Assembly: GCA_013265495.1 (NCBI GenBank) | Contig: MU058103.1 | Coordinates: forward strand, 124,001-188,000 | From: Vicugna vicugna | Taxonomy: Eukaryota | Direction: 5' to 3' | Length of the DNA stretch: 64,000 nt | Position numbers and translations under genes: made by a program | The notes under the pieces: model-generated | The model's database searches: none | Told to the model about the DNA's origin: nothing | The model's input: only the letters and a program-made list of their open reading frames with translations | Shown: positions 1 to 59,260 of the stretch, in pieces | Position numbering within the stretch: position 1 is the stretch's first letter | Layout of the letters: every line of letters begins with the position of its first letter

Positions 1-554
1 TGTCTTTTCCAAGGATGCAGGATTTGTTAGTGGTAAAACAGGAACCAGAGCCCAGGCTTCTTACCTTCCAATTTCTTGATTACATTATGCATTATATATC
101 ATTAAAATATAACTGCAAAATCTTAACTCTTGAAATATTCTGACATAACTTTGTGAAGCCAGATGCCATTTCAGATTGAACCAGAGGAAAGAAATTTAAA
201 ATATGCCATAATTCAGACTACCCGTAGACCATTTGAAGTCCAACGTGTACTTATCTTTGTACCTATGAGTTGTGATTTGTATCCCTTATTTTCCTTCGTA
301 CTTGCTTCTGAGAACTTTTTACCAAAAAATAGATTCCTGATGCATTCAGGAGATGGTCTAGTTTTTATTACTGGGTATCCAAAGCCATTTGCATATTATA
401 AGACTTATTCTTACCCTTCTTCCCTTATCTCTTACCACTGTCTCTTTCAAACTATTCATACCAATCATTAGGGACCCTGTGTAACTTCTGTCAAGGTCTA
501 CCATCTCCAGACATTTACTCAGACTATTTATTGGCTTTTAATGTTCTTATGTCC

Positions 555-825
555 TCTTTGCCTGGATAGTTCTTCAAACCTAAGCTTAGATATTACTTCC
601 TTCAGAGTAGTAGCCTTTCCTGGATATCCCTCCAGCATTTAACAACCTCCTTCTTTATGTGCTCCTATCAAATTCTATCTCCATTACTGTGTGTTCACAT
701 AGTATTACAGCTGTCAGCGTGTTCTCTCTCTTCCCTACTAAGTGACACATTCTTGTACTGTGTTCACTGTTGTATCTTCAGCAATTGTTTCAGCACATAG
801 TAGGAAACAATAAAGTAATTGTTTA
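555..825 (+). mobile_element. LINE-2 3' end fragment (degenerate)
   Basis: Ends in the L2-type tail ...ttcactgttgtatcttcagca...cagcacatagtaggaaacaataaagtaattgttt; boundaries approximate. Confidence 0.6.
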
Positions 826-3531
826 TTTACATTATATGAAAAATTAAGATGTCAGTATTGCATCTGTAAAGAATATTATTATAGTTTGAGGGGGGTTATT
901 CTCTTTCTGGTATCACCCATATGAAAGATGAATCAGTACTATATGTCATTGAAGCATATTTTCAATGTAAAAAATCAAGACACATCGAAAAACAAAGAGA
1001 GATATCTGAAGCATCAAGACAGATAGTTAAAATGAAGAGTGATACAGATATATAAAAAATCAAGAAAGATACCTGGGATTTTTTCATGGGAAATTTTTTT
1101 GAAAATCCCTGGATCATCTGAAAAACTGCATTTATATTCATGGTTAGAATGTTCATTTTTATTTTGGATTCAGCATTTGATAGCTCTTATAAGGAAAATG
1201 TAAAAGGAAGTGTAAGTCATATACTAATTATTTATGCTTCTATTACAATATCATCCTATGGATTATTAAGAAATATTGGAGTTGAAACCCATCTTAGAAT
1301 CATTATACTCAACTCCATCAATTAGCAAAAGCAAAAGCTGGGTTAAATTCTCACAAGATCAGACAGCTGGCTTGTGGAAGAGCAGGAACTAGAGCTAAGT
1401 CTCTTATCTCCCACTCTAGGGCATTTCATACCCCACTGCATATAACAATAGCAACAATAGGCAAGTTTTTAGTATTTTAGGCCTTGTAAATCTGCCTACC
1501 CATGTGGAAGGATCTTAATTTTTATAGTAAGTGTAGAAAAAAAATGTAACTCTGAGTGTTTGCTATTACAGATTGGAAAAATCCTTGGAAAATAAATATA
1601 TTTCTTCTTTGGGAGCCAATGTTAAGAAAAGCTGTGTTAAAAGTGGATTTTCTGACTTTTATTTAGCATTTGGGTTATTGTAAGCCATTTTGATATTCAT
1701 TTACTTTATTATTAAGAACCTACTGTATATAGAGCTTATGTTAGGTGCTATAAAGTCTAATGATGGAGAGAAGATCCTTTATGCAATTAAAGTTCTTTCA
1801 GGCTAGTATAAAAGTATAAAGCAATTGTTGTTGTTGTTGTTGTTAATTCAGAGTACATGTCACTCCTTAAATATAATTCTGATGTCTCCTATGGAATATG
1901 AATTAATTTCTATAAACATGATATGCATTTCTTTATTAAAATATTAGATACCCTAATGCATATGGCTTATATATACAAAGTCCTTGAGTTAACTTTTTAG
2001 AATCATGATAGTTAACACGCATGCAATTAGAATAGTAGAGCAAAATGATATATTTTGCCTATAGAATGGGGCTGCAGTTTCTTAACCTAGTTATGTAATA
2101 AGTTCCTCTAAAATGTGTTTATTCTAATGCCTGATCCAAAAACATTTATTTATTCTGAAAATGTCAAGGACCTTCTCTGTATTGGGCAGACGATTGGAAA
2201 ATGGATTTAGAGGGAAGGAAATGTTAGGAAGATATGGAGAATCAACTAAAATGCAAGTCCTTGTCCTAGGTGCTTTCATGTACGTTATCTCAGTTCAGCC
2301 TTTACAGTAATTTTTAAGGGAGACTTTCTTAGCAATTCCATTTTAGAGATTAAAAACATGGGAGCTCTGAAAGATTACACAGTATAAAATAGGAATTTGA
2401 GTTCAGTTATTTTAGCTACCAGTCCAGCACTCACACAAATTCCTTAAACATACTTGTGAATCCAAACAAGTTGGCAATTTCCCCATGATCTACATAGTAA
2501 TTTGAGTTTGAATGAGGCAATGAGTGGACCTCAGATATTTTCAGCAGAAGTAACATAAGTCTGCTGCTGAGAAGAGAAGTAACTACTAACATCAGTGATG
2601 ATAGCTAGATTCAGCTGGTTTTAAAATCTCCTTATCTGAGCAATGATTGAGATCAGAAAAAGTCTGTTTTTAGTATTGCTTTGTTGGAACACATTAATAT
2701 TGAGTCCTTCTCAAATCCTGAGCCAGAAGCAGTAGATTAACAACTATGAACAAGGATGGAGAATGACCTAATAAAGTCGGTTGATGAATGGCAAATCCAA
2801 GAGGTGGCAGAGGAGATAGACAAGCTGGAGAAAAAAATAGAAACCATAGAAAAGAATCAAGTGACAGAATGATCATGCATTAAAGAAAAAGAAATGTGAA
2901 GTGGATATATGCCATAAACCATTGTCGCGCTGTAAAGGGGAGGCACGGTCTTGTTCACACAAGGCAGTGGTCTGAGCAGACTCTTTATGGAACCTAACCA
3001 ATATGTTCCTCTGAGAATTCCAGCAATGGGGATCTAACTGAGCATCAACTCTGTCTAAGTATGCAGTTGAGTTTGAGTTGGGATGGTCAGTTTGAAAATG
3101 GGGTAGGGAAAGATAAAAAGATATTTTTATGTGTGTGTCTCAGAGTTTAAACTCAACTCAGTCTCTAAATTTTGGGAAACAAAAGGGGATATTCTTGAAA
3201 GATCCATGTTCACTATTGAAAAGAACAGAGAGAGAAGAGGAGAAAGGAGATATGGGTGTGGGGACAGGTGAATGAGATAAAGAGTGATGGAGAGAAGATG
3301 AATAGAATAACAATGGTCAGTGCAATCCCTATCAAAATACTAAGGGCATTTTTCATACACTAGAGCAAATAGTTTAAAAATTCCTTGAGTGAACTGCAAG
3401 TGCTGGTGAAATGAGTGGAAAAGCATTCCTTGTGTGAGCAGAGGCTTAGTGCTGAGAAAGATGGAGGAAAGGTAGACAGAGCCGGAGATTCTGACAGAGT
3501 AGAAAAAAGACACACAGGGAAATGAGGTTGA

Positions 3532-3567
3532 AAATCTGCCTACCCTACACACAGGGTAGGCAGATTT
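3532..3567. repeat. Perfect inverted repeat (15-bp arms, 6-nt loop)
   Basis: aaatctgcctaccct (3532-3546) - acacac - agggtaggcagattt (3553-3567); the arms are exact reverse complements. Confidence 0.95.
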
Positions 3568-4271
3568 ACAAGGCCATTTACAGACAGATTGAAGAGGGAG
3601 ATGACAAACAAGCTGGTTAGTTTAAATTTAACATTGTAGACAGGGAAGACTGCAGATTTCTGAGCAATTGTATCACTAGCAGCACCATGCTTTAAGAAAA
3701 ATTAACAGTTGTATATATGTAAATTAGAGATGGCAGTGAGGATGGAGAAATCTAAATAATAGTTATCCTTTCAGAGGTGTTTGCTCGAGTTTGGAGGAAG
3801 TTACTATTTTTTTTTCTGTAACGTTTCAACATATTTTGCAAGACAGTTTCATGAAAAGCCTAAAAGAGTAAATACGAATCATTGGTCTCTATACATTGCT
3901 TCCCCCTATTTTTGTCACACTATGAAGTGTTTTCAGTTAAAACTTCCAAGTTAATATTTAATGCAAAAATGGAGTAAGACTGAAAACAGACAAACAAAAA
4001 CTTCTGTAGTAAAGGTATTTCCTAATTGTGATCTTAATTTATATTTAGAAGATAAAAATTTGGACAGATTAACAAAGTAAAATAAATGTGCAATCAGAAG
4101 TGAGCCCACAGTGACATCCAACTCTAGCTTCTAATTATGTTCAACTGGAAATCATAGTCATCTTATGTTGGCAGTCTGTTTAAAATGATTTTTGTAAACC
4201 TCTCGTTAGTTACCGCCTTATTTCTTCCTTGAATACTGAAACTACCCTAACTGGTCTTTATGTTTAAATGT

Positions 4272-4743
4272 TGTATGGTCAGCCCACCCAAGATGGCTGT
4301 TCTCTTGCTCTCTTTGCATCCCCTGCTCAACCACTGCCTGCTTCACCTATACCTACTCACATGACTGACCTTCCTACATATTAGCCCCCAGCCCCAGCTA
4401 GTGATTATTCTAATCTTTAGATCAGAACTTCTCCACCTGGACAGCTTATCAAAGGGTCAGTGAGGGGCGAGCTTTTCTGCTGGTCTCTCTGATAACCAAT
4501 AAGCCAACCTGATGTCAATTCCCTCTGTACTTGTAACCTAACCCTCACCCCAGGAGCAAAGAATGCCACCATATCCTACCCTCTCTCTGCTGCACACGTT
4601 GGGGTGTCACCCTAGGACCATGCTTCAGACGGGTAAGCTCCCCTGTCCATTAAATCATTCATGGCTCTGTCTCGGACTCTGAGCTCTTTCATTGAAGCTG
4701 GGCAGGTACAGAGTTTGTAAGCCTTCAGGGGTGCAGCCCAGCA
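4272..4743 (+). repeat. 5' LTR (possibly MER73/MER74-related; family uncertain)
   Basis: Starts tgtatggtcagcccacccaagatggctgttctcttgc, ends ggggtgcagcccagca; poly(A)-signal-like attaaa near 4649; aligns by eye with 9312-9787. Confidence 0.85.
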
Positions 4744-4839
4744 GTTGGAGAGCAGCAGGGGGACCAAGGAAACTCCCTTGAGTGCTGAGATGTTGGGAAA
4801 TAAGCATGGGGAAGGGAAAATTGTAGGGGCTGTCCACTA

Positions 4840-5131
4840 ATGTGGGGCCCAAAAGTTGCATGGGTGATCCCAGAAGTTGCAGGGGAAATCCCAGGGTGGC
4901 CGTGCACTGGTCCATGGAGCCCTATGGTGCCTGTCCTTGATGAATGGGAGCCACCAAGACAGTACAGAGAACTCACAGACACTTCTAAGTCTGTTGCAGA
5001 GATACTGGCCTGCATTACAGTGCATTACAGTGGGAAAAAAGAAGGTAGACAGTAAGGTGATAACCACAGCTGTGAGCTGGCCTTTGCTTTTTGTATTAAG
5101 AAAGGCCACAGAGGCTGAGTTAACAGCCTAG
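4840..5131 (+). pseudogene. gag-like N-terminal remnant of the ERV
   Basis: Located just after the PBS/leader. The peptide GEIPGWPCTGPWSPMVPVLDEWEPP is reminiscent of class III gag N-termini. Frame is broken. Confidence 0.4.
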
Positions 5132-5251
5132 ATGAAGGCTAACTTGAATGCTGATTTCATGTTCCTATGAACGTGAGGGATGCGAATGTGAGTGAAAGAT
5201 ACATATTATTGTCTATTGCTGTTACTTGTTTAAACTGAATTAGCTATTTCT

Positions 5252-6056
5252 TTATTTTTGTTGAAGTATAATTGGTTTACAGTTTTTCAGGTGTACAACA
5301 AAATGATTCAGTTAAACCTATATATCCATATGTATTATTTTTCAAATTCTTTCACATTATAGGTTATTACAAGATATTGAATATGGTTTCCTGTGCTATA
5401 CAGTAGATCCTTGTTGTTTATCTATTTTATGTATGATAGTGTGTATCTGTTAATCCCAAACTCCTAATTTATCCTTTTACCCCCATTTCCCCTTTGGTAA
5501 CTATAAATTTGATTTCTATGTCTATGAGTTTATTTCTGTTTAGTAAATAAGTTCATTTGTTTCAATTTTTAGATTCCACTTATAACTGATATTGTATGAT
5601 ATTTATCTTTCTCTGTGTGACTTCACTTATGATAATCTCTAGGTCCATCCATGTTGCTGCAAATGGCATTATTTTATTCTTTTTTTATGGCTGAGTGTCA
5701 GTTCATCTCTGAGTGGACATTTAGGTTGCATCCATGTCTTGGCTATTGCAAATAGGGCTTCTGTGTTTTTTGTGCCAGTACCGTACTGTTTTGATTACTG
5801 TAGTCTTGTAACATAGTCTGAAGTCTGAGAGTATGATAGCTACTGCTTTGTTCTTCTTTCTCAAGATTGTTTTAGATTTTCAGGGTCTTTTGTGTTTACA
5901 TACAACTTTAAAAATTATTTGCTCCGTTCTGTGAAAAATGCCATTGGTAATTTGACAGGGATTGCACTGAATCTGTAGATTGCCTTGGGTGGTATGATCA
6001 TTTTGACAATATTGATTCTTCTAATCCAAGAAGACAGTATATCTTTTCATCTGTTT
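5252..6056 (-). mobile_element. L1 3' portion with internal deletion, nested in the ERV
   Basis: Reverse-strand L1 3' UTR (gttgaagtataattggtttaca...aggtccatccatgttgctgcaaatggcatt) joined near 5760 to ORF2-derived sequence (tgtgccagtaccgtactgttttgattactgtag...gggattgcactgaatctgtagattgcc). Confidence 0.9.
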
Positions 6057-6084
6057 TTGAACTATTTAGAAACTGAAAAAAAAA

Positions 6085-8400
6085 TCACTGAAAATGACCA
6101 AGATGGGAATCTTCTGACATTCTCAAACTGATTTTGCATATACCATTAGAGGAAGTTAGCTTTCTAGAAGGAATTGGTGTTTCTCTTCCTATTCCTTTGA
6201 GATGTAAATAATCTACCTGGGCTCCCAGGAAATTTAATCTAGTCCCTGAGAGTAAAAAAAAAAGAGAGAGAGAGAGAGAGAGAAAGAAAGATCTTTTAAA
6301 TTCTCGCGGGAAAACTGTGAGATCTCTGTGTCTATATATGTCTATATGTATGTGTAACTTATAAATATGTAGTGTCTTTGACTCCAGATGGCATTGCCAA
6401 GATTGGTTTGTGGATAAGCTCTGTTTAAATGGCTTAAAATAAATTAGGTGCTTAGGTGAATTCTCAGAAATGTAAAAGAAATTGGATAGAATGAATTTCA
6501 ATGTCACATGATCTGGGAAATATTCAAAACTGAATTAATATCTGGTATTGAAGCTACTTAAGCTTGTTGGTTTGATTAACATAGACATGTCCTTAGAGTT
6601 TCCAGTGTTAAGTATAATACTTCTGTTGTACATAGATTTTACTAGAGGTCAAGTAAGACCTTATTATATCTGTTGCAAATTTGACAGCAAGGAAAATAAC
6701 TTGATGTGATGGAACTTTAAGAAAAGGTAAACTCCCTAGGAATACTTATGTTTTGGGAATGTCTATCATTTTAAAATAGTCTCCTTTTACTTTGGTAATT
6801 TTCAATTAGACTAAGTTAAATGGAGAGAATTCATTGATTATCTGAGTCATTTCAAATAGGATAAAATATTGAAACATTAATTCGTGGGTGGGTCTGAGTT
6901 TACCTACCTTTGCCTTCATAGGAGAAGACTACGCATGAGTTTTCCAATCAGGAAATGCTGGTATGACAAATAGTTCACAATTACTTGCTTCCTGGTTTTT
7001 GCCAGAGATTGAGATTTTTAAGGGTTAAGATTATAATCAGTCATAATTCTAGTTATTGTAACCAAATTTTCTTTATCAATTACATTGTGATTAGGTGTTT
7101 ACCTGTGTCTTTTAAAGTCTTTTATCATGTATAGACAATTATTATTGTACTCTGATACTTTTACAAAAGTGCTTCAGCCTCAAGAAGAGTCATAGGGAGG
7201 ACCTTTTGACAAGTACTGGGTAAGAAATTCAAGAATCCTAATGGAAAATGTGATGGTTTCATAAGAAGTTGACAAAAGAATTGGTTACAGAGTGAACTGG
7301 TTATAATTTTTGTGGTTTTTGCCTGGAATATTACTGGTTTGATCTGTTTTCCAGTTATAAGGAAGCTGTCATGTTAGTTATGACTTATAGCAATTTGGTA
7401 AACTGTATCTGTAGGTAGAACTGAAAATTGTTTCTTTTTTCTCTGCCTGGTCCCTCTAGAAATTAGAGAATCTTGGGTTCTGAGTAGTCTTATCAGGTAA
7501 ATGAAAAAGACTGTCTCCTAGTATGTGCAGAATGTCCTGGCTCTGAGAGGCCTTTTAGGAATTTAGTCTGAGACTCCTGAGGAATTTCACCATAGTCAGT
7601 TTGGAGGAAGCAATGTGGTCACTTGATCAGACTTATTTTGCAAACAAATTAGTCTTGATTTGGCTATGTTTGGTGGAGATGAGCGTATTTTAGAGAGAAA
7701 AAATATGTTTCAGTGGATATTAAATTCTAGTTCTTGTTAATTAGGGTTTATATTTATGAATATTGTTGTATTAGCCACATTTTTGCCCTGATGTTCAGGA
7801 GGAAAAGAAAATTATCTAGCAAAGTTGTCACAGAGTTTAACTACTCATGATGTATCACTGTTTGCTTTAAGTCTTCTGCTAAAAGCACATGTATAATGTT
7901 TGTGTAACTATTCAGTGTAAGTGATAAAATGTAGAGCTTATAAAATGTTTCCTTGTTAACATACCTCTAAGCTTGTTCACAATATCTAATCAGTTTTCCC
8001 CCAATGTCAGCTGGGAAAATATAAAGGAGGCCTAGCACTGAGGGGCATGATATGGACCCAGGGCTGGCAGCATTCACCCTGGCTTTGGGGGTAATACTTG
8101 GTCTATCAAAAGATTTGCAATCAAAAGGGGAAGTGATGGAAAAATCTTCACATGTGGAGGTATGAGGAAGTCATTCTAGCTTACAAATGATTTAACTGGA
8201 ACATTACTGACAGAGTGGCCTGTTTTGTGGCCTATGGAACACGCGTTTGTATATCTGCTTTCGCCATTGTGCAGAGGAATGCATTTGAAAGTCAAAATAG
8301 AGTAGCTGTGGTTCAGGCATCCAAATTAAAACTAAGTGGAAATTGTAGCTGTGTTTTTGAACACATTCTTGTATTACTGAAAACTTGAGTTTTCTGAACT
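6085..8400 (+). mobile_element. ERV1-like (MER4-group type) non-autonomous internal sequence plus start of an LTR, nested in the class III element
   Basis: AT-rich internal sequence typical of MER4-group elements; polypurine tract aaaaggggaag (8123-8133) immediately followed by TG at 8134. Boundaries uncertain. Confidence 0.6.
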
Positions 8401-8805
8401 ATATTGAAGACCAGGACAAAAACCACAGACAGATGTGTTATCTTAGAATGAGAGTACTGACTGTGATTTGCTTAATGGTCATGATCTCCCCTGTGTTGTG
8501 CCTGTTAGATGTCTTACATTTCATCCCTAGCTTGAGTGAAGGAAATCTATTTGAGTACTGAGCAGCAACAGTGGCCTCACTGCAAAATGAGTCTAATTAT
8601 TGGGTCTACAGTGAGATGATTTTGTCATCTTCCTGTGGATTTCCATGAAAAATCTACCTGCTAATGTGGCTTTGTGGGATGATGGGCAGTGGAGGAGTAG
8701 GGGTTCTTACCATCTTCCTGTCCCACCTGCCAGCATATCAGAAGGACTCCCATCGGTAAACATTACTGTATGACTGGCTGCCCATGAGCATGCCTGGGCT
8801 GTGCT

Positions 8806-9230
8806 GTGTGGAATGGAATAGGCTGGCTTCTGGACACACAAGTCCCACTAGTGGGATTAACTGTTTTTTGTTTAGAAAGACCTAATGGGTCCACCCCTAA
8901 TGGCACTCAACACAACATGGGATGGCTGACCTGTACTGTGACTGCTGACTCCTGGCTAGGCCACCAAAATGTTTCTTTTAGAGCCAGTGCTTTCCTTCCC
9001 CATGGGGATAGCTCTGAGTTTATGAAAACCAAGAGTGGCCTTACCTTATGTATAACTGGACAGGAAGCTGCTGCCATTGTCTCACTCGCCACTGATTCAA
9101 TAAGTGCTTGGCTCCAAAACTTGCCCACATCCTAGAAAATGACTGTTCTTGGCATACTAGGTATCTTACTCTTGATACTCTGGCTGCTGCAGTCTGTATT
9201 GTATGTGTGTTATGCAGTTGCAGTGCCCCT
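8806..9230 (+). pseudogene. env-like remnant (membrane-proximal and transmembrane segment)
   Basis: ORF 8806-9135 continues in the same frame past one TAG: ...ISAWLQNLPTS*KMTVLGILGILLLILWLLQSVLYVCY. This is a hydrophobic anchor just upstream of the PPT and 3' LTR. Confidence 0.55.
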
Positions 9231-9311
9231 CTCCATACCTGACACCAGGGATATCGTGGAAGAGGGATAGGCCAAGACTTTTAAGGTCATGCAGGGTACG
9301 TAGAGGTGGAG

Positions 9312-9787
9312 TGTATCATCAGAACACCCAGGTTGGCTGTTCTCTTGCTTTCTGTGCATCCCCTGCTCAACCAGTGCCTGCTTCACTTACTCCCTATTCA
9401 CATGACTGACCTTCCTACATACCTGCCCCAGGCCCCAGCTAGTGATTAGATTATAACATCTCCACTATGAAAGCTATGGAAAAGAGGCAGTGAGGGGTGT
9501 GCCCCTCTACTAGTTTCCCTGGTAATGAGTGAGCCAACCTGAGGTCAATATCCTGTATAACTGATAACCTCCTCCTCCCCCCATCCCCTGGGGGCAAAGC
9601 CTGCTGCCTTGTTCTGCCAGCCTTCTGCCACACACAGTGGAGTGTTGCTCCAGGACCTTGCTTTAGATATGTAAACTCCCCCTATCCATTAAACCATTGA
9701 TGTCTCTGTCACTGGCTTTGGGCTCTTTCTTCAGTCCTGAAGCTAGGCAAGTACCAGCTTTGCAGGCCTGCGGGTTGCAGGCCAACA
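9312..9787 (+). repeat. 3' LTR
   Basis: Starts tgtatcatcagaacacccaggttggctgttctcttgc, ends cgggttgcaggccaaca, followed by the TSD aatgt. Confidence 0.88.
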
Positions 9788-10429
9788 AATGTCCATCCCA
9801 TTTGTAATTGTTCCTTTATTCTCTGCCAAAGGGACCGCTTCCACAGCATGTAACTTCTCTATTTCCCACATCCTTCTTTCCAATCAAAATAATGCCCTCC
9901 ATTACTTGTAGACTGAGTATTAGGAAGCTAATATTTATTTCACATTTATCAGATCAGTTTGGAAAAAATGATGCCCAATAGCATTCATCTAGAAAAGGAT
10001 AGATATGGAATCACAACATGGTTGGGTTAATTCAAGTGTGATCATTCTACCATAAACTGCTGTTAACTACAGTGAAATGATGCAAGTTAACATCAAAAAC
10101 TGGACTCAAATATATGTCCCAGTCTTTTCTTTTGTGTATGTTTACTGTGGCATTTTAACATGTTTTAGGAGCATTCATATGGACCTTTGATCATCCGAAT
10201 TGTTTAAGAATGCACTGCTAAAAAAGAAAAAAAAAACCCAAAAACTATGATTATAGGTAATTACTGCACCACCATTTAAAGAGTTGGATTAACATAAACC
10301 TTATATAATAATTCCTCCAAAATTGAGATTAAAGTTTTCTTATCAAAGAATTAAAACTGTGTTTGTAGTTATTTCAAACTGGATTATCTGAATGTAATAA
10401 CATAAGAAAAAAGTTTAAAAAATTGTGGA

Positions 10430-11430
10430 AGAGATAAGAATATTTTTTTCAGTGTATTTCCCTAAAAAAATCTGAATCAATTGAAGTTATTAAGACATTT
10501 AAGTGAATTTAATAATATTAGCAATAATCAGTTAGAAAATACATTAGAGTAAAAATATTTATACCTAATCTCAATAACAGTAGATACATATCTCAAGACT
10601 AACTCACAAGGAAATGTATAAAACTCACATGAAGAGGACAGATTTCAAAATCATTTTTTGAAATTCAGTAGGGAACATGAATGGGAAGAATGAGTCTTAT
10701 AAAAGTATCATTGATCCTCAAAATGATATATATATATACCAGTATGAACCACTTCTTTTGGATTATGTGACTTTGGGAAGATTTATATATTTTAAAGGTA
10801 TGTAATGAGTATGGGCTACCATACTACATACTAAAAAAGATATAAAAGATCTAAACCCTCACAGCCTCCTACAAAAAAAACCTGATGAATATATATGTTC
10901 TAATTTATTATAGGATAAGAATAGCATTTTGAATCTGAAAAAATGATAGCTTATACAACACAAGTTGGTGGTAAGACAAAAAGCCTAAATTATACCAATT
11001 TATTTTTAGGAAATAATCATAGATGTGAGCAAAGATTTAGAAATAATAATGTTAATTGTGACTCTTTTTGGGAAAAATTAGAGCCAACTTAAATGTCTAA
11101 AACAAAAGACTAGTTAAATAAATTTTATGTTCCTAGTACAAAATTATATATATCAAAAATAGTATTATAAAATATATAATAATATGTAAATATACTCGTA
11201 ATATGTTTAGTTTGAAAAATACAAAATTACTTCTATCATACGATTTCACTTATAATTTGTATTCTTTCTAACATATGGCTCAAGGAATCAAAACCAATAC
11301 CTTAACAGCTGTTATATCCATATAGGAAACATGTAGGTAGTACTGAATTTTGTAGTTGTTTGTTTTTGTATCTCTATTTCCTAAATTTTGTTGTTGAAAT
11401 GAATGTATATTATTTTGTAAATTAAAAAAT
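10430..11430 (+). mobile_element. Ancient L1 (L1ME-like) fragments
   Basis: A-rich degenerate L1 ORF2/3' UTR-like sequence (e.g. gagccaacttaaatgtctaa...agactagttaaataaatttt; ends tgaatgtatattattttgtaaattaaaaaa). Confidence 0.5.
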
Positions 11431-12296
11431 GGCAAAAAAATGGCAAGTTATACAATATAAAGATTCACTAAATGTATATACCTATACAAATGATCATCTT
11501 AAAGCAAATTTCCATTTCTGGAGTTTTCTGTACCTCTGCTTTTATTTTGGAGAAGGCTCTGAATGATGCATGAAGCCTCTTCCCTCCCACTGCAAGCTGC
11601 TAGCTAGCTGCTGGGATGCTGTGTGCTTTACAACTTACAGATCCTCAGAATCCGACAGTGAGTCACACTGCAGGACATTCATAAGGGCTGAAAGGCACAA
11701 TCCCTCGAGAAACCTGACTTTTTAGTAAGGATTTTCAAGAAATGTTCTTTGTTTTCATTTCCTTAGCTCTTCCCTCCTTCTTTTTCATTCTCTTTTCCCT
11801 TCAGATGCTGTTTCCTTAAGAGCTTTGAGAAAATTAATTTTTTTTTCTTCCCACAAAAGGCCCTTTGGAGAGGAGAAAACTTCTAGGACCTCTGGGTGTG
11901 TCCACACCTGTCTACCTCAGCCCCTATCAGCTTATAGCAGATTTACCTTCTATTAGAGTCTCTTCCGTGTCAGGTCCTGAGTCAAAAAAATCCAAAGCAT
12001 GGCCAGATGGAAGAAATGTCTTTTCTACATGAGATTGGAATGGGGAGGAGAACACCTTTTTTTTCTTCCGATGATCTGTGTGTTAGGGATTAAAAAGCTG
12101 TCAAGGACCTTTGCATGAAGGTTGTTTTCCCAGAGAGTCCAGGCTTCCTGCCAGGTCTTCTACACAGTCCCCTGCTCTCAGGCCAGAATCTTGCTGGACT
12201 TACATTCCAACCTTGAGGCCCAACCTCCTTGGTAAGGTCTTTGACCCTCAAGAAGTACCTCATCCCACTTTCTCCCCCTGAGAAATCCCTATTATC

Positions 12297-12496
12297 TTTT
12301 TTTGAATTGAAGTATAGTCAGTTTATAATTTGAGTCAATTTCTGGTGTACAGCATAATGCTTCAGTTATACATGAACATACGTATATTCATTTTCATATT
12401 ATTTTCACTGTAAGTTACTACAAGATATTGAATATAGTTCCCTGTGCTATATAGTATGAACTTATTGTTTATCTATTTTATATATATTAGTATCTG
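12297..12496 (-). mobile_element. L1 3' end fragment (camelid-type)
   Basis: ttttttgaattgaagtatagtcagtttataat...aatttctggtgtacagcataatg...caagatattgaatatagttccctgtgctata; same family as the copies at 21064, 43372, 50075 and 58740. Confidence 0.9.
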
Positions 12497-13839
12497 GTGG
12501 TGACAGCTAAGCTCAGTCTCTCTTGTCTGACTCAGACCCATATTACAGTATGTGTTCTTTCATTCAACAATAAATTTGAGCATTGGTTGTGCTTAGAACT
12601 ATATTAATTCCACTATTCACCACTGTGAGGTTGAACTCTCAGTAAGTAGGACTCAATACTTATCCAACAACTCACCATAGCTTCTTTTAGGCCTCTATAA
12701 GGACAGACAAATGTTTATTTGCTTTTTGTTATTTCAGCCTTCCTAGAATGTCCTATGGCTATTGTTGTATCTATTTTGATAGAAATAGTCTATGTCATCA
12801 ACTTCTCAAATTCTCTCAGCCGAAGAATAGTCCTTTATTGATGTCTTAACTTACATAGTTCTGCTAAACCATAGATCCTAAATGTTAATAGGATAATACT
12901 TTGTGCAAAACTTCTACATTCCATATTTGAAATAAGCAATTTCCGTTTTTGAAAAATTGCAAAATCCATTAATTGTATTGTCTTACAGACAGTTACTTAA
13001 GTTAAAATACTGGAAATTAATCCTATGAAGCTTCCTTGTCTTGCCTTCTCCTTCTGGCAAATTCTGAATCTAGTCAGTGCTATCTAGTCAATATATTTCA
13101 AATGCATCCACCTTATTCTAACCCTATTTCCATGAATGTACTTAATTTTTAAAAATTTATTATTGTAGTGGTCTTATAACTAATCTTGCTGAATCCAGTA
13201 TTTTCAACTCCAGTGATACTTAATATTGCCACCAGCATAGTAGTTTTATATTGTATTTTATGTCTATTTAAATTATGTGGAATTTATTCTTTTATGTAAG
13301 TGCATAACTTTTAAAACTTTAATGGCAGAGCTAATTCAATTTTAATTATTACTGTGAATTAAAAAATTATGAATAAACACTAAAAATCATTAGTGATAAT
13401 AAATTTCTACTACTCATCCAAAGGAATATCTTTAAAAACACATTTTGACATTCATGCTTGCGTTTATTCTCAGAGATCAGATTCATGATAGACAAAATTA
13501 CACCGAACTGTTCTTTACACATAAACTTAGTTCATAAAATAGAGCCCTTTACAGGAGAAAGAGAACTAAAATAAATATAAATCAACCCTTTATTTTATAA
13601 ATGTAGAAATAAAATTCACAAACTGTGTTATTGCCTCTAGTCTGTCATTCCATAAGACTTGCACACTCCCCGAGGTCAAGAATTGCATTTTGTTGAACAT
13701 TAAATTCTTACCACTTAGTCCACAATTCATTCACATTTGCTAAATGAAGAAACCTTTTCATTGTTACAGAGAGATGATACCAGAATCTCAGATTTCCAGA
13801 TAGGTAAATGCAAATCTCACCAAAAATAGAAACTATTTA

Positions 13840-14100
13840 TTAAGGACTTAGATTCTGCGTCAGGGACAATTCTAAATAACTTATATAATTTTGAAAATTG
13901 TATTTAAAAATAATTGATTACCTTTTTTAATCCTATGTTGTTAGGTGTTACTAGAATTACCTCCATTTTACGTATTGGGAAAGGGGAGCACAGAATGCTT
14001 ATGCATCTTCCTGCAAAGATCACACATCCAACAAGTGGTCGAATGGATTTGAACTCCAGTAATCAGAGGTCAGAGTTTGTATTCTATCTCCACTCTGTCC
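13840..14100 (-). mobile_element. MIR SINE (degenerate)
   Basis: tttaatcctat...aggtgttactagaattacctccattttacgtattgggaaag...ggatttgaactccag, a MIR-core-like motif. Confidence 0.55.
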
Positions 14101-15980
14101 CAGCTGTGTTTAGTGCTGTGCATTAAAGTCTTACTAATGTGGAAGATTAAGGCACCTACAGATAAACCCATCAAATTGCATTCTGTTCTTCATAGAAATA
14201 GGAAAATGTAGGGCTTTTTTCAGGTCAGTTTTTATATGTTGTAATATGGGAGACAATATTAATTTTATGAAAATCTAAATGGTTCTAGAAACCATGCCTA
14301 ATAGTCAAATGATATTGCTTTTCAGTCAAAAGATTATAGGGCAATTCACTTTACCACTAAAAATCTATCATTTCTAAGTGAGAAAAACAAATAGAAATGA
14401 TGACTTTTCAGCTGAATTAATTTTCATTTCATACTTCACAGAGTAGGAGTAAAACATTGACTTTACCTGGAATGATTTAAAGTTACATTTAATTTTGAAT
14501 GAAGGGCTAAGATGGAGGGATGGATAAAATTTTAATTTTTTCTAACTTTGTTATGTTTCCCATTTTGAATCTTTAACAATCACACTTCATATTCAGATTT
14601 CTTTGACTTTAAAATTGTTTTTTACCAGAGATTTATTTACCAAGGGTAGAGTAAATTTTGCAAGAATAATTTCAATGACTGACTGCAGGACTTAGATCAC
14701 TTCTGAGTTATAACATATACACATTCTCAGAAGAGTGTCTTCTGGAAACCTGGTAAAGATGTTTCTTCAAATGAAACATTTACTGTACCTAACTGAAGAA
14801 ACATATATATAAAAATAAGTAATGCAGTGTTGAAGGTATGTAAAAGAGTGATGCTTAGCAGTTCAGGGTGAGGTGACAGGCAGATGAAGATAACTGGCAG
14901 CTGGGAGAAGTCAGTTTGAGTATGTAAACTTCCATTTTTAGCTGCATGCCTTTTATGAACCTTGAATTTTGTTAGTAAATAAGGTTTTGTCTGAGACAAA
15001 GTAGACATACAATGATTTCTTAAAGGCTACTTAGGTCCAACATAAATTAGAAAAACAATGTCTAGAATTTTCCATATCCATGAAACTTCCCCTTTGTTAT
15101 TGCTACTTGAAAGCCACTGTTGTGTAAGATTCAGCTAGGAATCTTGATAGATGTTAGAACCAGCAGATAACGCGCCTTAAGCTTTCCCCCACCTTTTTCC
15201 TGTGCAGTTTTCAAATAAAATACTTTAAAATTATTTAATTAAGAATGCTGTTATTGAAGCCAAGTGAGTGTTTACCAAATTTCTGAACCATAACACTGTC
15301 TTGGCCTATCTTTTTTTCAATTTACACTTGAAACTGAGTTAGTCATTAAGAGGCTTGAAGTAGTTTCTTATTAAGGTTGAGAAATGTAAAAAAAAAAAAT
15401 GAAGTTAGAAGAGATTCCCTTTTTGTCAGTCATGACCTTTTGCTATCTGATTTAGTCTGAGAGCTTTCCAGCTGGAGTGCCTACTCTGTCCTCAAGAGGC
15501 CTGTGTGTCTATGTAAAGTCATTTATTGCTGAAATGCACTTGCCTTCTTTCATGTCTGGAGGGGACCATCTTTCCTCTGGCCCCAGTGAGTGTGACTTAA
15601 TTCTTTTTGGATAGCTCTTTGTTTAAACCTCACCGGAATACTACAAGAAGCAATATTGAGGCTCTAACTCAATAGAATATTTCACAGGCTTCTTCAAAAC
15701 ATGGCCTCTTGGTAGAATATCATTAACCTTTTACTCAAGAAAGATTCTTAGATGTACTTAACATGTTATAGGTGTTCAATAAATACATGTGCTTCCTAAT
15801 TGATCATATCTTTCCATTTCTTTTCTTTTCAATGTCTCAGGTAATAATTTCCACATAATGTTTAGTAAACTTTTGTTGAATTAAATAGAACCACATGTAT
15901 ACAATGACCACTTGTATACAAGTTATTTCAAAGGCACTAATTAAATAGAAAATATAGCTTCATTTCCAAATTTCATTGCT

Positions 15981-16065
15981 TTTCTTTTTTAAAGGTGGTA
16001 CTAGGGATTGAACCCAGCACCTCATGTATGCTAAGCATGCACCCTACCATTGAGCTACACCCACC
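15981..16065 (-). mobile_element. tRNA-Ala(AGC)-derived SINE (Vic-1-like camelid SINE) or tRNA pseudogene
   Basis: Reverse complement ggtgggtgtagctcaatggtagggtgcatgcttagcatacatgaggtgctgggttcaatccctagtaccacc has A/B boxes and an AGC anticodon loop, followed by an A-rich tail. Confidence 0.85.
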
Positions 16066-16094
16066 TCTCTTCACTTCAATTTGCTTCCATTTAA

Positions 16095-16650
16095 CACAAT
16101 TTATTTATTGAGTCTCAGCTATGTGGCAACAATTCTGTTAATCATTCAAGAAAAATGAAATAAAATAAAATATGATTATCAGCATAAGATGATAATAGTC
16201 GAGATGAGAGAAGAAATAAGCAACCCCACATAATGATTATGTAATATGCATTATATGAAAATGTTAATTGACCTCATATTAAGAAGAGTATGTCTCTTTC
16301 GGTGTAGTCAAGGAAAGCTTGAAAGAGAAGATGGTGTTAGAGCTAGGTCTGGAAGGTTGTGCTGGACTAAAGTAGGCTTGACGTTCTAGGTGAGCAATAA
16401 AAAGTCAGTGCAAAGGTTGTAGAAGAAGTTGACAAATTGGGGAACTAGTTGATAGAATTTTCTTGGGCTAAATCTAGAGTCAAATATTTAGGGAAGTAGA
16501 CTTAGATCAGGAAAATTATGGCCTAACTATATATAACCTTCCAATTATAAACTAAAGGGTATGTGTGTGTGTATTTGGGGGAGAGAAGTACTAACAGATA
16601 ACTATTTTTTATAGGAAAGATGGTTTTGAATGAGAAGACAATGGCTGCAA
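16095..16650 (-). mobile_element. LINE-2 fragment
   Basis: Begins atttatttattgagtctcagctatgtggcaacaattctgtt (L2 3' end, reversed) and includes gtcaaggaaagcttgaaagagaagatggtgttagagctagg. Confidence 0.55.
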
Positions 16651-16652
16651 GA

Positions 16653-17652
16653 AGAAAATTTAAACGTCAGTGCTAATTTTCTAGGTGTCATATCATAAAA
16701 GTCTAACGGAAAATTTTAAATTAGTGGTAGTAAAAATTGAGATTAAAATAAAAAAAATTTTTTTCCAAATGACCTAGAGCAGTGATTCTCAGAGGAGTGG
16801 TACTGGCATCAAATACAGAGGTACTGAATCTGAAACTGTCAGGTGGAGGGGAAGTAGCAATTTGTGTTATAATGAGCCCTCCAGATGATTCTGATGTACA
16901 TCAAAGTTTGAGAACTACTGACTGAAACTTTGTAATGACTTGTAAGGGTTTCTCTTTCTGTGACACTTAAATGCTTATTCACCATACATTTATTAACATA
17001 ATTCATTAACTCTAATATGCTACCAGTTTAAAGATGCACTATTTTATGTCATTAGAAAAAGATGCCAATTAAAGCAATTCATGTGACCAATTTTAAAAGG
17101 CATCCCAATTTCAGAAGTGTTAAAAAATAAAAATGTACATCTTAGAACTTATAGAAAATTTAAACGTCAGTGCTAATTTTCTAGGTGTCATATCATAAAA
17201 GTCTAACGGAAAATTTTAAATTAGTGGTAGTAAAAATTGAGATTAAAATAAAAAAAATTTTTTTCCAAATGACCTAGAGCAGTGATTCTCAGAGGAGTGG
17301 TACTGGCATCAAATACAGAGGTACTGAATCTGAAACTGTCAGGTGGAGGGGAAGTAGCAATTTGTGTTATAATGAGCCCTCCAGATGATTCTGATGTACA
17401 TCAAAGTTTGAGAACTACTGACTGAAACTTTGTAATGACTTGTAAGGGTTTCTCTTTCTGTGACACTTAAATGCTTATTCACCATACATTTATTAACATA
17501 ATTCATTAACTCTAATATGCTACCAGTTTAAAGATGCACTATTTTATGTCATTAGAAAAAGATGCCAATTAAAGCAATTCATGTGACCAATTTTAAAAGG
17601 CATCCCAATTTCAGAAGTGTTAAAAAATAAAAATGTACATCTTAGAACTTAT
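16653..17652. repeat. Tandem duplication, 2 x 500 bp, no mismatch seen
   Basis: 16653-17152 equals 17153-17652. The unit starts agaaaatttaaacgtcagtgct and ends catcttagaacttat; the offset is exactly 500 wherever compared. Confidence 0.97.
16780..16920. mobile_element. MER5A-like hAT-Charlie MITE (second copy at 17280-17420 through the duplication)
   Basis: cagtgattctca...tactgaatctgaaact...gagccctccagatgattctgatgtacatcaaagtttgagaactactg; terminal inverted repeats cagtgattctca / tgagaactactg. Confidence 0.8.
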
Positions 17653-19172
17653 GAAACATGTTGATTTGATGCCACAAGTAATGCTGAATAAAAAAGGTGA
17701 AGTTTCACAGATACATCAACCTATTTCTTTGCTTATTCTCACCAAATCTGAACCACAACTACATGAAACATACATTCATTTCTATTTCCCTAGTTTTGTT
17801 TTAAACTCAGACCTCATGTCTCAACTATTTTCTTTTCACTAGTAGGTTATCTGAATCTAAACAATCTGCCTCTATTCTGCCCACACAAGTAAAACAGATA
17901 GGAATTTCTAGGACATTAGTCTTTAGGTCTTGGCAATAATTATTTTCATTTTTCAGAACTGGAAAACTTTTTTGGGCAGAAGAGTAGATTTCCTTTTAAA
18001 CAAATATCTTTCCCATCCCACCAACACCTTATTGTTCTAGTTGCTACAGACACAATTGAGAGTAAGACACATGACAGCTATATTTCAGGAACTCCCACAA
18101 AGCCTGTTGGTGATCTGTGGGGTGTCTGGATGGGGAATGACTGGGTCACACCAGGTTTTGAAAACACATCTGCCTCCTGAAAATTCTGCTCTCATTCTCT
18201 CCCCAGAGGAGTACATGGCCAACCTACCCATATTTTTCTCTCAGTTTCTCCCATTAACTTCTGAGCTTTGCTCTTCTTCCAACTTTGACTTCTTTTGTCT
18301 CTTTTATATTCTGTCCAGATCATTCTCCCAGACCAGAAACAGCCCAGACTTCTGAATTTGCTGTAGTATATTTTCCTAGGCTGGACTAACTGAGAATGGA
18401 ATGGAAAGTGCCCTCAGGCTGAAGTACATGACCCTTGGAAGAATAATCTGAGACAGAGCAGCTAGGGGAAAATAAAAACCAAACTATGAAGGACAGTCTA
18501 ACTAGGTAATCAACCCTAAAGTATAGATAGGACAGGAAATTCTAAATACAATTCAGTTGGAAGGAAAGAGAGAGAACTAATGTAGTTTAGAAGAAGACTG
18601 CTGGTGATGGGGCTAAGTAATCTTCACCCTGATAAGTAAAAAACTTAAATAAAAGTTTTAAACAAGTTTTTAGCTGAAAAGGTGGCACTGAGCATAGTTA
18701 AGTGATTTTCCTAAGCTCATAAGGTTAATAAGCCATTCAAATGAGGCTACTGGCTGGAGTTTTTTGCCCCCAGAGCCCCACAGTGTCCCCTCTATATGCA
18801 ACTCTAGTGAGTGAGATTACATAACACTTTCTCAACAACTGCTAATTCATCACAGAGATCTGACAGTTAAGAGATGTTAGAAAATTGAGATGTTATTAGT
18901 CCAAAGCAAAACTACACCATTTTACTATGTATGTGTGTGTATATATGTGTATATATATTAGAGTTACTCATATTCTCTGAGAATAACTTTTATCCCCTAA
19001 AAGATGGGAAAAGGAGATTTCTTCAATACTGCTTCTCAAGGTTGTTTTGTACACACACGCATACAAACTTATAAAACATAAATATGCTACAGAAATGTGA
19101 GCTGCAATCAATATCATTATCATTATTCAATAGGAACCAGTCTAAAGTTTTTGCTTGGATTGAGTTAATTAA

Positions 19173-19192
19173 ACACACACACACACACACAC
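19173..19192. repeat. (CA)n microsatellite
   Basis: About 10 AC units. Confidence 0.9.
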
Positions 19193-21063
19193 CCCTGTCA
19201 CTTCCTGTACAGAGGGTATCTGGTGGTGACTTTAAGAACACAGCCTTTCCAAACTGATTTTGGTGTGTGGTTCCATGTCTGCCATTGATTAACATTCTGA
19301 ATCTGTCCATTAATCTCTCTAAAGCCAAGTTTCCTAACCTGTCACATACTAGTAATACTATTATCTATACTATAAGGGGTTACTGAGGATTAAATACCAT
19401 AATAACATACTTATTTTTTAAAATATTGTCATTAAAGTTCTGAAGTTTAGTCTAATGCCATCCCTGTTAGACACCACGCATTTTGTGGGAAGAACCATAT
19501 ATAACGATTGGCGACCACCTGCTATACCTTGACTGGAGTACAAGGTGTTTTTAAAAAGTTATCTAATTGGATACTTGGAACAAATCTGCACACTGCTTAC
19601 TAATATGTCCATTTTATTGATAAGCATGCCAAAGCACAAAGAGTTTAAGTTACTTGTCCAAGGTCGCAAGACTTGTAATTGGAAGAAAAAAGAATGGGAC
19701 ACTGGTCATTACAACTTCAAAGTCCTTGCTTTTCCCGCAATGGACACCGACTCCTCAAGGACAGCATAAAGGGATTGACTGGATTTGTTAGTCAAGGACC
19801 TACTATGATGATTACTTTTCATGGTTCATGGTTGTTTTTTGTGTTTGTGTGAGTTCTTTCATACTCAGTTAGCTCAACTTAGAACTATTTCTAAAGAAAG
19901 AGAAACCTTAGTGTCAGTATTGCTCATATTTACCATGGAAGGAAGACTTTTACTACATATGAATGGTAATTTTATTTCTGCCCTTAAAATGAGAAATAGG
20001 TCAACCTACTTACTTATTGCATTGCTTAAATCATCTTCTGGGATTTTTGCAGTTTAAGGCTTACAGGTCTTTTCTTGGCTCTCTTCCTCTAAATCTCTTA
20101 AGGGATCATGAGTATTCTATGCACATCCAATAAAATATTTATTAAAGAATATATAATATGACTGTAAATTTATTTTAACATTTTTCTTCTAAGGAGTTCA
20201 GAACCTTATGGCATAAATTACCTCATTTATCTTCATATACATTCCCAAGGGAAGAGCTCAGTAGTATTAGCAACCCAGTTTAAAAATAAATGGGCAAATA
20301 TAAGCCAGTTGTTCGGTTAGTCAGTCTGTCATCAGGATTGATGGGGTTTCCACTATTTGTAGGTAACTGTGCTGAGAGTAGCCGTGCTGTGCTCAGGGGA
20401 GCAACAGGTCAGAGCCAGGCTAGTCTGGATAAAAACCTGAAATGGCTAAGGGGTACCTCAGTTACGTTTCTCTGCTAATCTGCTTATTTGCCCAGCTGGT
20501 GGCTACATAATGTGTCCCATTGTCTCTATCTGAGATTCCATCGGCCATTGTTCTGTCCAACCACTGCGTGCTTCCAGGCTCAGATCAGCCATCATTTCAT
20601 CTGTAAGACATTTCTTGATCCTCAACAGAGGTACTCATGTCTGTGTCCAGAGTTCTGATAAGTAGATGGGGGGAGATATATGTGGTTAATATGTCCAATA
20701 CAAGATATTCAATGAGTCTTTTTTTCAACTTTTCAGTTTCCTTTTATTTTCTGCTTGATTTTTTCCAAAAGTTTAATGATAAGTATGAGTAATAAAAACA
20801 ACAACAGTTATTCAAGTTTTAATCTTTTTGCCTTATCTCTCCAACCGCATTTCAATTTTCTTGAGAATAGGCTATCATACTCACTTACATCCTCCAGCTT
20901 AGTGATACAGGAGATTTGATATAATCAATTTCTTTTGTTCACAAAGGCTGAAGACACATTTTTATAGCATGACTACAGTTTGTCACCACTAAGTTATTCT
21001 ATTGTGAATATACATACTTAATATATGTGTATTCCTTGAGGTATGAGGGATTTTTTTGTGTCC

Positions 21064-41036: not shown

Positions 41037-41232
41037 TAACATTTTTTATTGACTTACAACCATTGTACAATGTTGTGTCAAATTTCAGTGTAGAGCACAA
41101 TTTTTCAATTATACATGAACATATATATATATATATATTCATTGTCACATTTTTTTCTCTGTGAGCTACCATAAAATCTTGTGTATATTTCCCTATGCTA
41201 TACAGTATAATCTTGTTTATCTATTCTACAAT
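41037..41232 (-). mobile_element. L1 3' end fragment, younger-looking subfamily
   Basis: aacattttttattgacttacaaccattgtacaatgttgtgtcaaatttcagtgtagagcacaa...ccctatgctatacagtataatcttgtttatctattctaca; the tail matches the type at 55096. Confidence 0.85.
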
Positions 41233-41254
41233 TATTTTTTAAAAAATAGTTGAG

Positions 41255-43371: not shown

Positions 43372-43740
43372 TTTTTTTAATTGAAGTATAGTCAGTTACA
43401 AAGTGTCAATTTCTGGTATACAGCACAATGTCCCTAGTCATGCATGTATATACATATATTCATTTTCATATTCTTTTTCACAGAGTTATTGCAAGATATT
43501 GAATATAGTTCCTTGTATTATACAGAAGAAATCTGTTTTTTAATCTATTTTTATATATAGTGGTTATCATTTGCAAACCTCAAACTCTCAAATTTATCCC
43601 TTCCCACCCCGTTTTCCTCAGTAACCATAAGATTATTTACTATGTCTGAGAGTCTGTTTCTGTTTTGTAGATTCATTTGTGTGCTCTTTTTTCTTTTCTT
43701 TTTTTTTTTTATATTTCACATATGAGTGATATCATGTATT
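43372..43740 (-). mobile_element. L1 3' end fragment (camelid-type)
   Basis: tttttttaattgaagtatagtcagttacaaagtgtcaatttctggtatacagcac...ttcacatatgagtgatatcatgtatt. Confidence 0.9.
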
Positions 43741-46700
43741 TAACTTGAGTAATTATGAAAATAATAAAGAATTTTTTAAATGACTAAAACTGAAGTTTGA
43801 AATCTACTCCCACAAAAATTACACATATGTATGCATATCTATGTGATTTTAACCATACTTTGTGGCTCTAAGGCTCTAAGGCATGATGCTAATATCACTC
43901 TCTCTGATTCCTAATATTGAAAGACTTGAGAATAATTTGTAGCCAATTTTGCCAGTGGAATAATAATAATAAGTCAATATGACTTTTCCTGATGCTGTCA
44001 TGTTGCTGTCACTTCACACCATGAGTTTTAGTGGGATTTTAAATTCCCATGAGAAAACCTTTATGACTCAGTGTGTCTTTTTTTATTCACTTATTCCAAG
44101 TGCAGTATCACTGTTCTCAGTCTGTAACACATGATTTTGCCTTGCTTTCTTTTAACATGATATATGAAATCTGACTGTGACTCGGGATGCCAGAGCACCT
44201 TGTGTTTCCCATGTGGAATCAGTTCTCTCTCTCTGGTGGTTGCATCCTTACTACTTGCACCGAGAAGGAGGATGTTCAAGCCCTGAGGTGGAAAAAAAAT
44301 CGCTTGTTGCTTATATTTAGATTTGAAAATAAATGAATCCTTTCCTGCAGTGACATGACACTTTCCTAGTGGCATCACTAGCAGTTTCTTTTACTTCAGT
44401 TTTATCTTGAACGTACATTTTTAACAACTTCATACGCAGCAAGATGTTCATGAGTGCTCCATTTTAGCTTATTAAAAACAAAAGCAAATCAATATGTCTG
44501 CTATCAGTAGGACAACAGCCTCTGGTAGACTGGTGTGATGTCAGTCTTACACGTTAGATGGCACATTATGAATAACACGTATTAAGTTACATTGCAGTAG
44601 AAGTCCCAACTCCTGAGTTCCAATCCCTGGGCTTTGCGCCCCAACTAGCCATTCTCCTGACGTTACCTTACTAACCTCTCTGGACTTCAGTCTCCTTGAT
44701 TAAAAAGAAAGTGTTTGGCTTCTATAACTCTAAAGTTGTTTCTAGTTCTATCTGTTATCCTTGGACTATAATAATATTTCTACATTAAATAATTTTGATC
44801 TTTAATTCATAACTGGGGACTTATTAACATGTAAGCTTTCTCATTGAGCTTCTAGTCAGGACCATCTGGCTAATTTCTAGTCTATTTTAGGCACTATTTT
44901 GAGTGAGAAGATATCCACCCTCCAATTACAGGAGCCTGGAGACTAACTCTGGAACCTTTGAAGCTTTGTTCTATTCCCAGTAAAGAGACATTTTTTGAAA
45001 CCTGCAAGAGAGGATGACATTTCTAAGGTTCAAGGAAGTGTGAACTTTGGCACTGAATATATTATGCTATTCAGTTGTACTTCCTGAAGTTTATACTTAA
45101 TGTAGGCATTGTGCTGCTATTGTTAAACATACTTTTGAATCAAAGAAGAAAGAGAAAATATCTCGATTAAAGGTAATCTTGACATAAAGATGTCTATTGT
45201 TACTAGCAGAGCTTCTGAATACACTGGAACAGTTCTTGACAGTAAAGGGGTTTTCATTACATATTTTACATCACAATCAAACAAGCAGGAATAAAAAACT
45301 GAACAATGCTTACAGGTCTATGGTTTTTGACCTGTGTCAAGAAATAGGAAGAGAAAAATGAATTTCACAGTTAAGAATGAGAGTATTTTCTTTTTGTAAT
45401 CAGTGGACATGATTTGATTTCTTTTGCAGGAATGTCTATATTAAAACACATTAAATAATGTTTCAATTAATACATTTTAACTGAGGATGTCTAGGTTTAT
45501 TCACTTAGTCATTGTAGTTGCTATTTTAGAGTATTGTATAATTGATGCTTCTCAAAGAATTTTCAGGATCACTTGCTTCAATGCATGTATTTTACAGATG
45601 CTGTGATATTGTAGGAGGTTGCTTTTGAATCCTTAGTTTCATTTCTCATTTGAGAAACGTTGGTCGGGAGACTCTCTAACCCTTAGTTTGCTCATCCATG
45701 AAATCTACAGAATATAATCACTATTGTAAATAGTTAGGTAGGGAGGTTTGCCCAAAGTTACATAGTAACTACTAGTGTTAGAGCTAAATTAGATAGAAGA
45801 TCTGAAATCCAGGCCTTGATTTTTATACTATAGTAAATTACCTCCCTCCATAAAGTATAATATATGCATTCCCTCCATAAAATATAATATATGCTTTCCA
45901 GATGCACTAATGTTATATATGTGTGTATGATTATATATTACTATGTGCCAGACACAGTTTTAAACATTTATATTACATACATTTAATATATTATTTAATC
46001 CTCACAACAATCGTATGATACAAATATTATATATTTTCCAGTACATTTATTATGGCATAGCAATGTCAAATTACTTATTCAATGTTTCATTCTATAGTGC
46101 TTGCTTTTAATTACTACTATTTGTTACCTGTACATTGTAATAACTGAGTTCCTAAAATAAGGGCTTCTGATAGCATTGAAACAATACTCATTCAGTTTAA
46201 GTTCTGTGAAAAATCTTTTCTACTATTTTCCCAGAAGGCACAGGGAAATGCTTATACTATGGCAAAGTGGTGATGGTAGGGCAAAAACTAATCTATGTAA
46301 TATAAAATACAGTTATGTAAAGCTAAAAATCACAAAACTGACCACAATTGGGTTAAAGTGGTGAAACTTCGGCCATTTTATTTGATGATACATTTCCACA
46401 TGTGAAAGGTCATCCTCATGCCTATGTAGATTAGGTTAGTGAAGGAATTGTTGAGAGACTGGGATACTGGTTAGAAGTTATTGTAATTGTTCATGTAGCA
46501 GGCTAACAGAACCTGAACTAGGGGAGAGACCTTGAGTCTCAGCCACAAAAGCGAAGCTGTTGTTTATTACCATTATTGGTCCTGAGCTTTCAATGAAGAG
46601 TGGACCAACTTTATTCTGTCATATCTACATGGCCATTTTCTCTGTTGCTGCCCCTCAAACTCTCCATTCTGGGAAAGAATCTCAGTGCAAAAATGCAGAC

Positions 46701-50074: not shown

Positions 50075-50766
50075 TGGCTTGCTAAAAAAAAAAACCCTAA
50101 AAATAGACTTACTGTATGATTCAGCAATCCCACTTCGGGGTATATATCCAGAGCGAACTCTAATATGAAAAGATACATGTACCACAATATTCATAGCAGC
50201 ACTATGTACAATAGCCAGGACATGGAACCAACCTAAATGTTCATTGACAGATGACTGAATAAAGAAGTTGTGTTATATTTATATAATGGAATACTGCTCT
50301 GTCATAAAACAGAATAAAATAATGCCATTTGCAGCAACATGGATGGACCTAGAGATCATCATTCTAAGTGAAGCAGGCCAGAAAGAGAAATAAAAATACC
50401 ATATGATATCACTCATACATGGAATCTAAAAAAAAGGAGGGGGATACTAAAAACTCATCTACAAAACAGAAACAGACTTTCAGACTTAGTAAACAATCTT
50501 ACGGTTACAGGGGGAAAGGGACCGGGGAAGGATAAATTTGGGAGTTAGAGATTTACGAATGTTAGCCGTTATATATCAAAATGCATTTTAAAAATGTTTC
50601 TTTTGTATAGTACAGGGAACTATGTTCAATATCTTGTAATAACCTTTAATAGAAAAAATATGAAAGAAAATGTATGTATGTATATGCATGACTGGGATAT
50701 TATGCTGTACACCAGAGATTGACACATTGTAGTTGACTGTACTTCAATTTTAAAAAATATATACAT
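50075..50766 (+). mobile_element. 5'-truncated L1 (end of ORF2 plus 3' UTR)
   Basis: ctaaaaatagactt...tcagcaatcccactt...aatgccatttgcagcaacatggatggacctagag...gactgtacttcaattttaaaaaa; possible TSD atatagca at 50067-50074 and 50767-50774. Confidence 0.93.
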
Positions 50767-58739: not shown

Positions 58740-59260
58740 AATTAATTTTTTAATTAAAACAGTTTAGTTGAAGTACAGTCAGTTTACAATATTGTGTCAA
58801 TTTCTAGTGTACAGCATAATGTTTCAGTCTTACATATACATACATATATTTCTTTTCATTATAGGTTATTATAAAATACTGAATATAGTTCTCTGTGCTA
58901 TACAGTGTAAACTTGTTCTTTATCTATTTTATATATAATAATATCTGCACATCTCAAACTCCCAATTTATCCTTTCCCACTCCTTTCCCTTTATGGTAAC
59001 CATAAGTTTGTTTTCTCTGAATCTGTTTCTGTTTTGTAAATTAGTTCAATTTTGTCTTTTTTTTTTCTTTTTTAAGATTCCACGTGTGAGTGATATATAG
59101 TATTTTTCTTTCTGGCTTACTTCACTTAAGAATGATGATCTCCAGGTCCATCCATGTTGCTGCAAATAGCATTATTTCATTCTTATGGCTGAGTGGTATT
59201 CCATTATACACACACACACACACACACACATCTTCTTTGTCCAGTCATCTGTCCATTTAG
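58740..59260 (-). mobile_element. L1 3' end fragment with internal (CA)n
   Basis: gttgaagtacagtcagtttacaatattgtgtcaatttctagtgtacagcataatg...tccaggtccatccatgttgctgcaaatagcatt...catcttctttgtccagtcatctgtc. Confidence 0.92.

Follow-up and report, generated by a model that had tools for sequence, protein, structure and literature searches.

A mismatch-free 500-bp head-to-tail repeat in a Vicugna vicugna contig is probably a duplication made in assembly

The window, a stretch of 64,000 nucleotides from contig MU058103.1 of Vicugna vicugna (assembly GCA_013265495.1, positions 124,001 to 188,000), has a GC content of 35% and a CpG observed/expected ratio of 0.12, a composition typical of mammalian non-coding DNA. 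No CpG island was present in any 2-kb bin of 1–64000, the ratio per bin ranging from 0.04 to 0.22. All 136 stop-to-stop frames of at least 62 aa were searched against Pfam; two gave matches, both to reverse transcriptase at 53297–54190, and the other 134 were without a family. The long frames thus contain no host protein domain recognized by Pfam, in a search which short exons would escape. The window is gene-poor or deep intronic DNA. The two matching frames are consecutive, lie on the minus strand, and resemble RVT_1 with E-values of 3e-22 and 5e-18; they belong to a broken L1 ORF2-like fragment.

Other repeats are spread over the window. LTR-like direct repeats lie at 4272–4743 and 9312–9787, about 5 kb apart, with identity at 355 of 459 aligned letters (77%), and the DNA between them is decayed and carries an L1-like insert near 5250–6060. 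This pair and its interior (4272–9787) constitute an old, dead endogenous retrovirus-like element, the long frames of which gave no Pfam match. One further repeat family is dispersed at 5348–5706, 12306–12496, 41049–41247, 43436–43742, 50183–50739 and 58768–59256; its copies occur in both orientations, are 60–96% alike, and are taken by us to be L1 3' ends. The sole Rfam match in the window is a tRNA-like sequence at 15993–16064 on the minus strand (RF00005, 32.7 bits), which is situated outside the duplicated unit described below; rather than a tRNA gene, it is probably a SINE head of tRNA origin.

The feature under study is a 500-bp unit which is written twice. The first copy occupies 16653–17152 and is non-coding, with 31% GC; the second follows it head-to-tail at 17153–17652, and neither is assigned a strand. 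An exact, mismatch-free duplication had been claimed in the original prediction, and comparison of the copies bears this out, with 0 mismatches in 500 positions at a constant offset of 500. The maximal exact run at this offset starts at 16653 and has a length of exactly 500, neither flank prolonging it. Since the run stops at 500 on both sides, the junction (17152/17153) is blunt and without microhomology in the window sequence, again as had been proposed. TRF reported a period of 500, 2.0 copies and a score of 2001. The window contains no second exact direct repeat of at least 25 nt, the next-longest exact run at offsets of 7 to 9999 being 24 nt. There is no N anywhere in the window, and hence none between the copies. 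The copy boundaries equal 152 modulo 500 in window coordinates, and the position within the window is not informative. As a repeat, the doubling is far beyond chance; at issue is its existence in the DNA.

The unit itself is composed of old debris, which we presume to derive from L2, from a MER5A-like element (16780–16920) and from a Tigger-like element (17497–17660). An Rfam search revealed no family inside the unit. The element at 16780–16920, which is present again at 17280–17420, is small and decayed and has weak inverted ends; 10 of 12 letters of its arms are alike, a score reached by 67 of 2000 shuffles. The second decayed element, at 17497–17660, possesses terminal inverted repeats and is whole in the second copy plus the right flank. 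Its arms, 17492–17530 and 17628–17665, pair with a score of 31, which was reached by 6 of 2000 shuffles. In the first copy, where the right arm lacks its terminal bases, the score falls to 18, and the junction truncates the element 8 bases short. The earlier observation that the junction cuts an element with terminal inverted repeats is therefore upheld by these arms. With the final 8 bases of this element lost from the first copy at the junction, the unit is not itself an element. A transposon insertion unit, which had already been denied on sequence grounds, was accordingly rejected, as the ends of the unit do not match the ends of any element within it.

Other samples were examined with positions 14500–17152 as query (260 sampled words). 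The 24 runs listed included 20 with 0.93–1.00 of the words, all present as contigs; four (X21–X24) had no matching words or were not indexed and were left out of the comparison. Contigs were compared for four of the 20 matching runs (X1, X2, X3 and X4), the remaining 16 lying outside the comparison. X1–X3 contained all 260 words, and X4 comes from another study and carries another organism label. The comparison target was 16903–17402, that is, one unit rotated such that the junction is placed mid-way.

In each of the four runs exactly one contig aligned to the rotated unit, and its path led from the left flank through a single unit to the right flank. The contig enters at 17153 from a loose end that equals the left flank of the window, continues to 17402, steps back 500 to 16903, and leaves again at 17153 into a loose end that is identical with the right flank of the window (4/4 runs). 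The 17152/17153 junction was bridged by none of these contigs: in all four runs, for which contigs and not raw reads were used, none reached more than 1 letter across it. A search for sequence spanning the junction had been proposed in the original prediction, and when run on contigs, as a proxy for the long-read, depth and PCR tests named there, it gave one copy and no junction in four out of four. One of the two copies in the window is surplus with respect to these samples.

The distance from the start of the unit to the first base past it was 500 letters in X1–X3 and 501 in X4, where one extra T is found in the T run at 17257 (and 16757) relative to both copies in the window. No substitution was seen within the 500 letters in any of the four contigs. 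The extra T of X4 reflects natural variation in run length between samples; between the two window copies there is no difference. When projected on the window, the left ends of three of the four contigs fell inside the tRNA-like repeat at 15993–16064, and all four right ends fell in dinucleotide repeats of the right flank, near 18955 or 19192. Contig ends are thus where short-read contigs are expected to stop, which fits colinear contigs. Depth is available as one flat figure per contig and was not used. Contigs drop rare variants and may lose a junction of low depth; the contig result makes a heterozygous copy unlikely, not impossible.

As a control, a de Bruijn graph (k=31) of 15001–19500 was simulated for a one-copy, a two-copy and a mixed genotype. 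The two-copy and mixed genotypes each yielded pieces of 60, 500, 1682 and 1878 letters, the graph being cut at both ends of the unit and the 60-letter piece carrying the junction. The one-copy genotype yielded a single piece of 4000, and it is this result that the four observed contigs match.

The first base past the duplication, 17653 on the plus strand, deserves further attention. It is G in the window and appears to be A in all four contigs, a base which is deduced from piece lengths and table coordinates and is not printed. In 4/4 contigs the piece that ends at 17153 is 251 letters long (other letters: 0) and is followed by a loose end whose first letter is that of 17654; A produced this gap-free end in three of four scoring schemes, and G in none. 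A 30-nt right-flank pattern meant to read this base had 0 matches in a metagenome scan. With A at 17653, the junction would be 1-base homologous on the contig allele. The G of the window pairs with the opposite inverted arm of the 17497–17660 element and, by virtue of this agreement, is probably a natural allele and probably also the ancestral one. Judging from this apparent difference, it may be that the assembled animal is not among the four runs. By chance, one or other of the two flanking bases would differ in about 0.3–0.5% of cases, and a variable base at the boundary is what a break in the assembly graph or in a contig would give.

Taken as a whole, the repeat is present in the sequence and most likely absent from the animal. 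We consider it probable that the DNA holds one copy and that the second arose in assembly, through the doubling of an overlap or gap of fixed size (500 bases) at a break. The original prediction had preferred an artefact to a very recent duplication, a preference with which the one copy in the contigs of all four runs agrees. The break would have fallen immediately ahead of the variable position 17653, and the pieces would have been rejoined untrimmed by a step that handles a fixed 500 bases. Settings of 500 bases may occur in some overlappers and polishers. Our first choice for such a step would be an overlap of fixed length left untrimmed where two graph edges, contigs or chunks meet: edges of this sort end at variant sites and have a fixed-length end in common, and an overlap of this kind would account for length and position together. 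Alternatively, a scaffold gap of fixed size (500 N) may have been set at a place with a true gap of zero, and the adjacent 500 bases may later have been written over it. With a 1/L size prior assumed, a length of exactly 500 is expected for 0.04–0.07% of natural duplications and some multiple of 100 for about 1%, both of these being rough, after-the-fact figures.

On this reading, the duplication is without biological function and is an ordinary artefact. No gene or known RNA in the window is touched by it, and its importance is one of quality control only. Reads mapped to the window would lead to a homozygous 500-bp deletion being called falsely, with half depth and zero mapping quality expected over the 1 kb. 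Should further exact 500-bp doublings turn up in this genome, its other 'perfect recent duplication' findings would need screening for this signature.

It is unlikely that the copy was instead added after assembly, either through a slip in file handling, with overlapping chunks being joined, or by a deliberate synthetic insertion, in which case the assembly as deposited would be single-copy. An insertion of this type would agree with a length of exactly 500, zero mismatches, a blunt junction and a lone event in ordinary DNA, as well as with the absence of the second copy from all four runs. Random placement, however, leaves the base difference at the boundary (0.3–0.5% by chance) unaccounted for, and the G at 17653, which matches the opposite inverted arm, looks like a natural allele and not like an arbitrary change.

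Rather improbable, too, is a real tandem duplication of very recent origin, restricted to the assembled animal or heterozygous in it, which would have arisen by blunt end-joining or by template switching in break repair. In its favour, a new event should leave the copies identical, no run among the four has been identified with the assembled animal (X1–X3 are possible sources only), and rare variants can be dropped from contigs. Against this, the duplication is missing from all four runs, three of which contain all 260 sampled words of 14500–17152, and it would require two coincidences, namely that the length is round and that the distal boundary falls on a variable base; nor is there microhomology in the window. 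We see a slim chance that the locus holds either a blunt, brand-new private 500-bp duplication of the assembled animal or, if it is an artefact, one instance of a recurrent 'exact 500' signature across the assembly. The former, if true, would be a germline event caught within a few generations on a haplotype with the rarer allele at the next base, and the latter would be the mark of a so far undescribed software fault. That the unit is a mobile element or otherwise functional, as a transposition product or a regulatory duplication, is very improbable in spite of the remains of small elements with inverted ends inside it, for its ends do not coincide with element ends and the junction cuts an element 8 bases short, no Pfam family lies near it and no Rfam family within it, and it is not doubled in the other samples (one copy in 4/4 runs).

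A false duplication made in assembly, which we prefer, was compared with known kinds of duplication. Microhomology-mediated tandem duplication was rejected, given that flanking microhomology is 0 in the window (at most 1 base, on the contig allele) and that the junction occurs in independent DNA in 0 of 4 runs. In the available part of the account of such events (bioRxiv 10.64898/2026.02.28.708716) they resemble the present case in comprising two head-to-tail copies of single-copy DNA, but they need flanking microhomology and a junction that is real in the DNA, unlike what is found here. False heterotype duplication was likewise rejected: the copies are identical and carry no haplotype-specific variants, the sole base difference from the contigs being at the boundary (17653).

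With regard to the length, a literature search returned no paper on an 'exactly 500 bp' duplication in an assembly. The portions available of four papers (PMC5368935, bioRxiv 10.1101/2021.07.02.450803, PMC10690975 and PMC11249255) describe no 500-base doubling and do not confirm a 500-base polishing window. According to the accessible part of another source (PMC8466942), 3D-DNA inserts fixed 500-bp gaps; a gap of 500 N from this program supplies the number 500 and can stand where the true gap is zero. The literature search found no paper showing a fixed scaffold gap overwritten by a tandem copy, and we infer the overwriting step. An untrimmed graph-edge overlap of fixed length would be like the present case in giving an exact repeat of parameter-like length at a graph break, and an overlap of 500 would be required here.

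The closest comparison is with false homotype duplications, which in the available text of Rhie et al. 2021 (PMC8081667) stem from overlapping contig boundaries at branches of the graph and finish up as tandem copies; a related account is contained in the corresponding part of Ko et al. 2022 (PMC9516828). The copies in those accounts, as far as the available text goes, are usually about as long as a read, with a gap between them, in contrast to the exactly 500 bases and the lack of any N here. The window has no N, and the unbridged junction in the contigs is a proxy for a gap in depth and not a measure taken from reads. In other respects the agreement with the duplications of these two sources, as there described, is close: one locus is written twice in tandem, a single unit being present per contig in all four runs, there are no copy-specific letters or k-mers (0/500 mismatches), and the junction is without independent sequence support, with the break beside a variable site.
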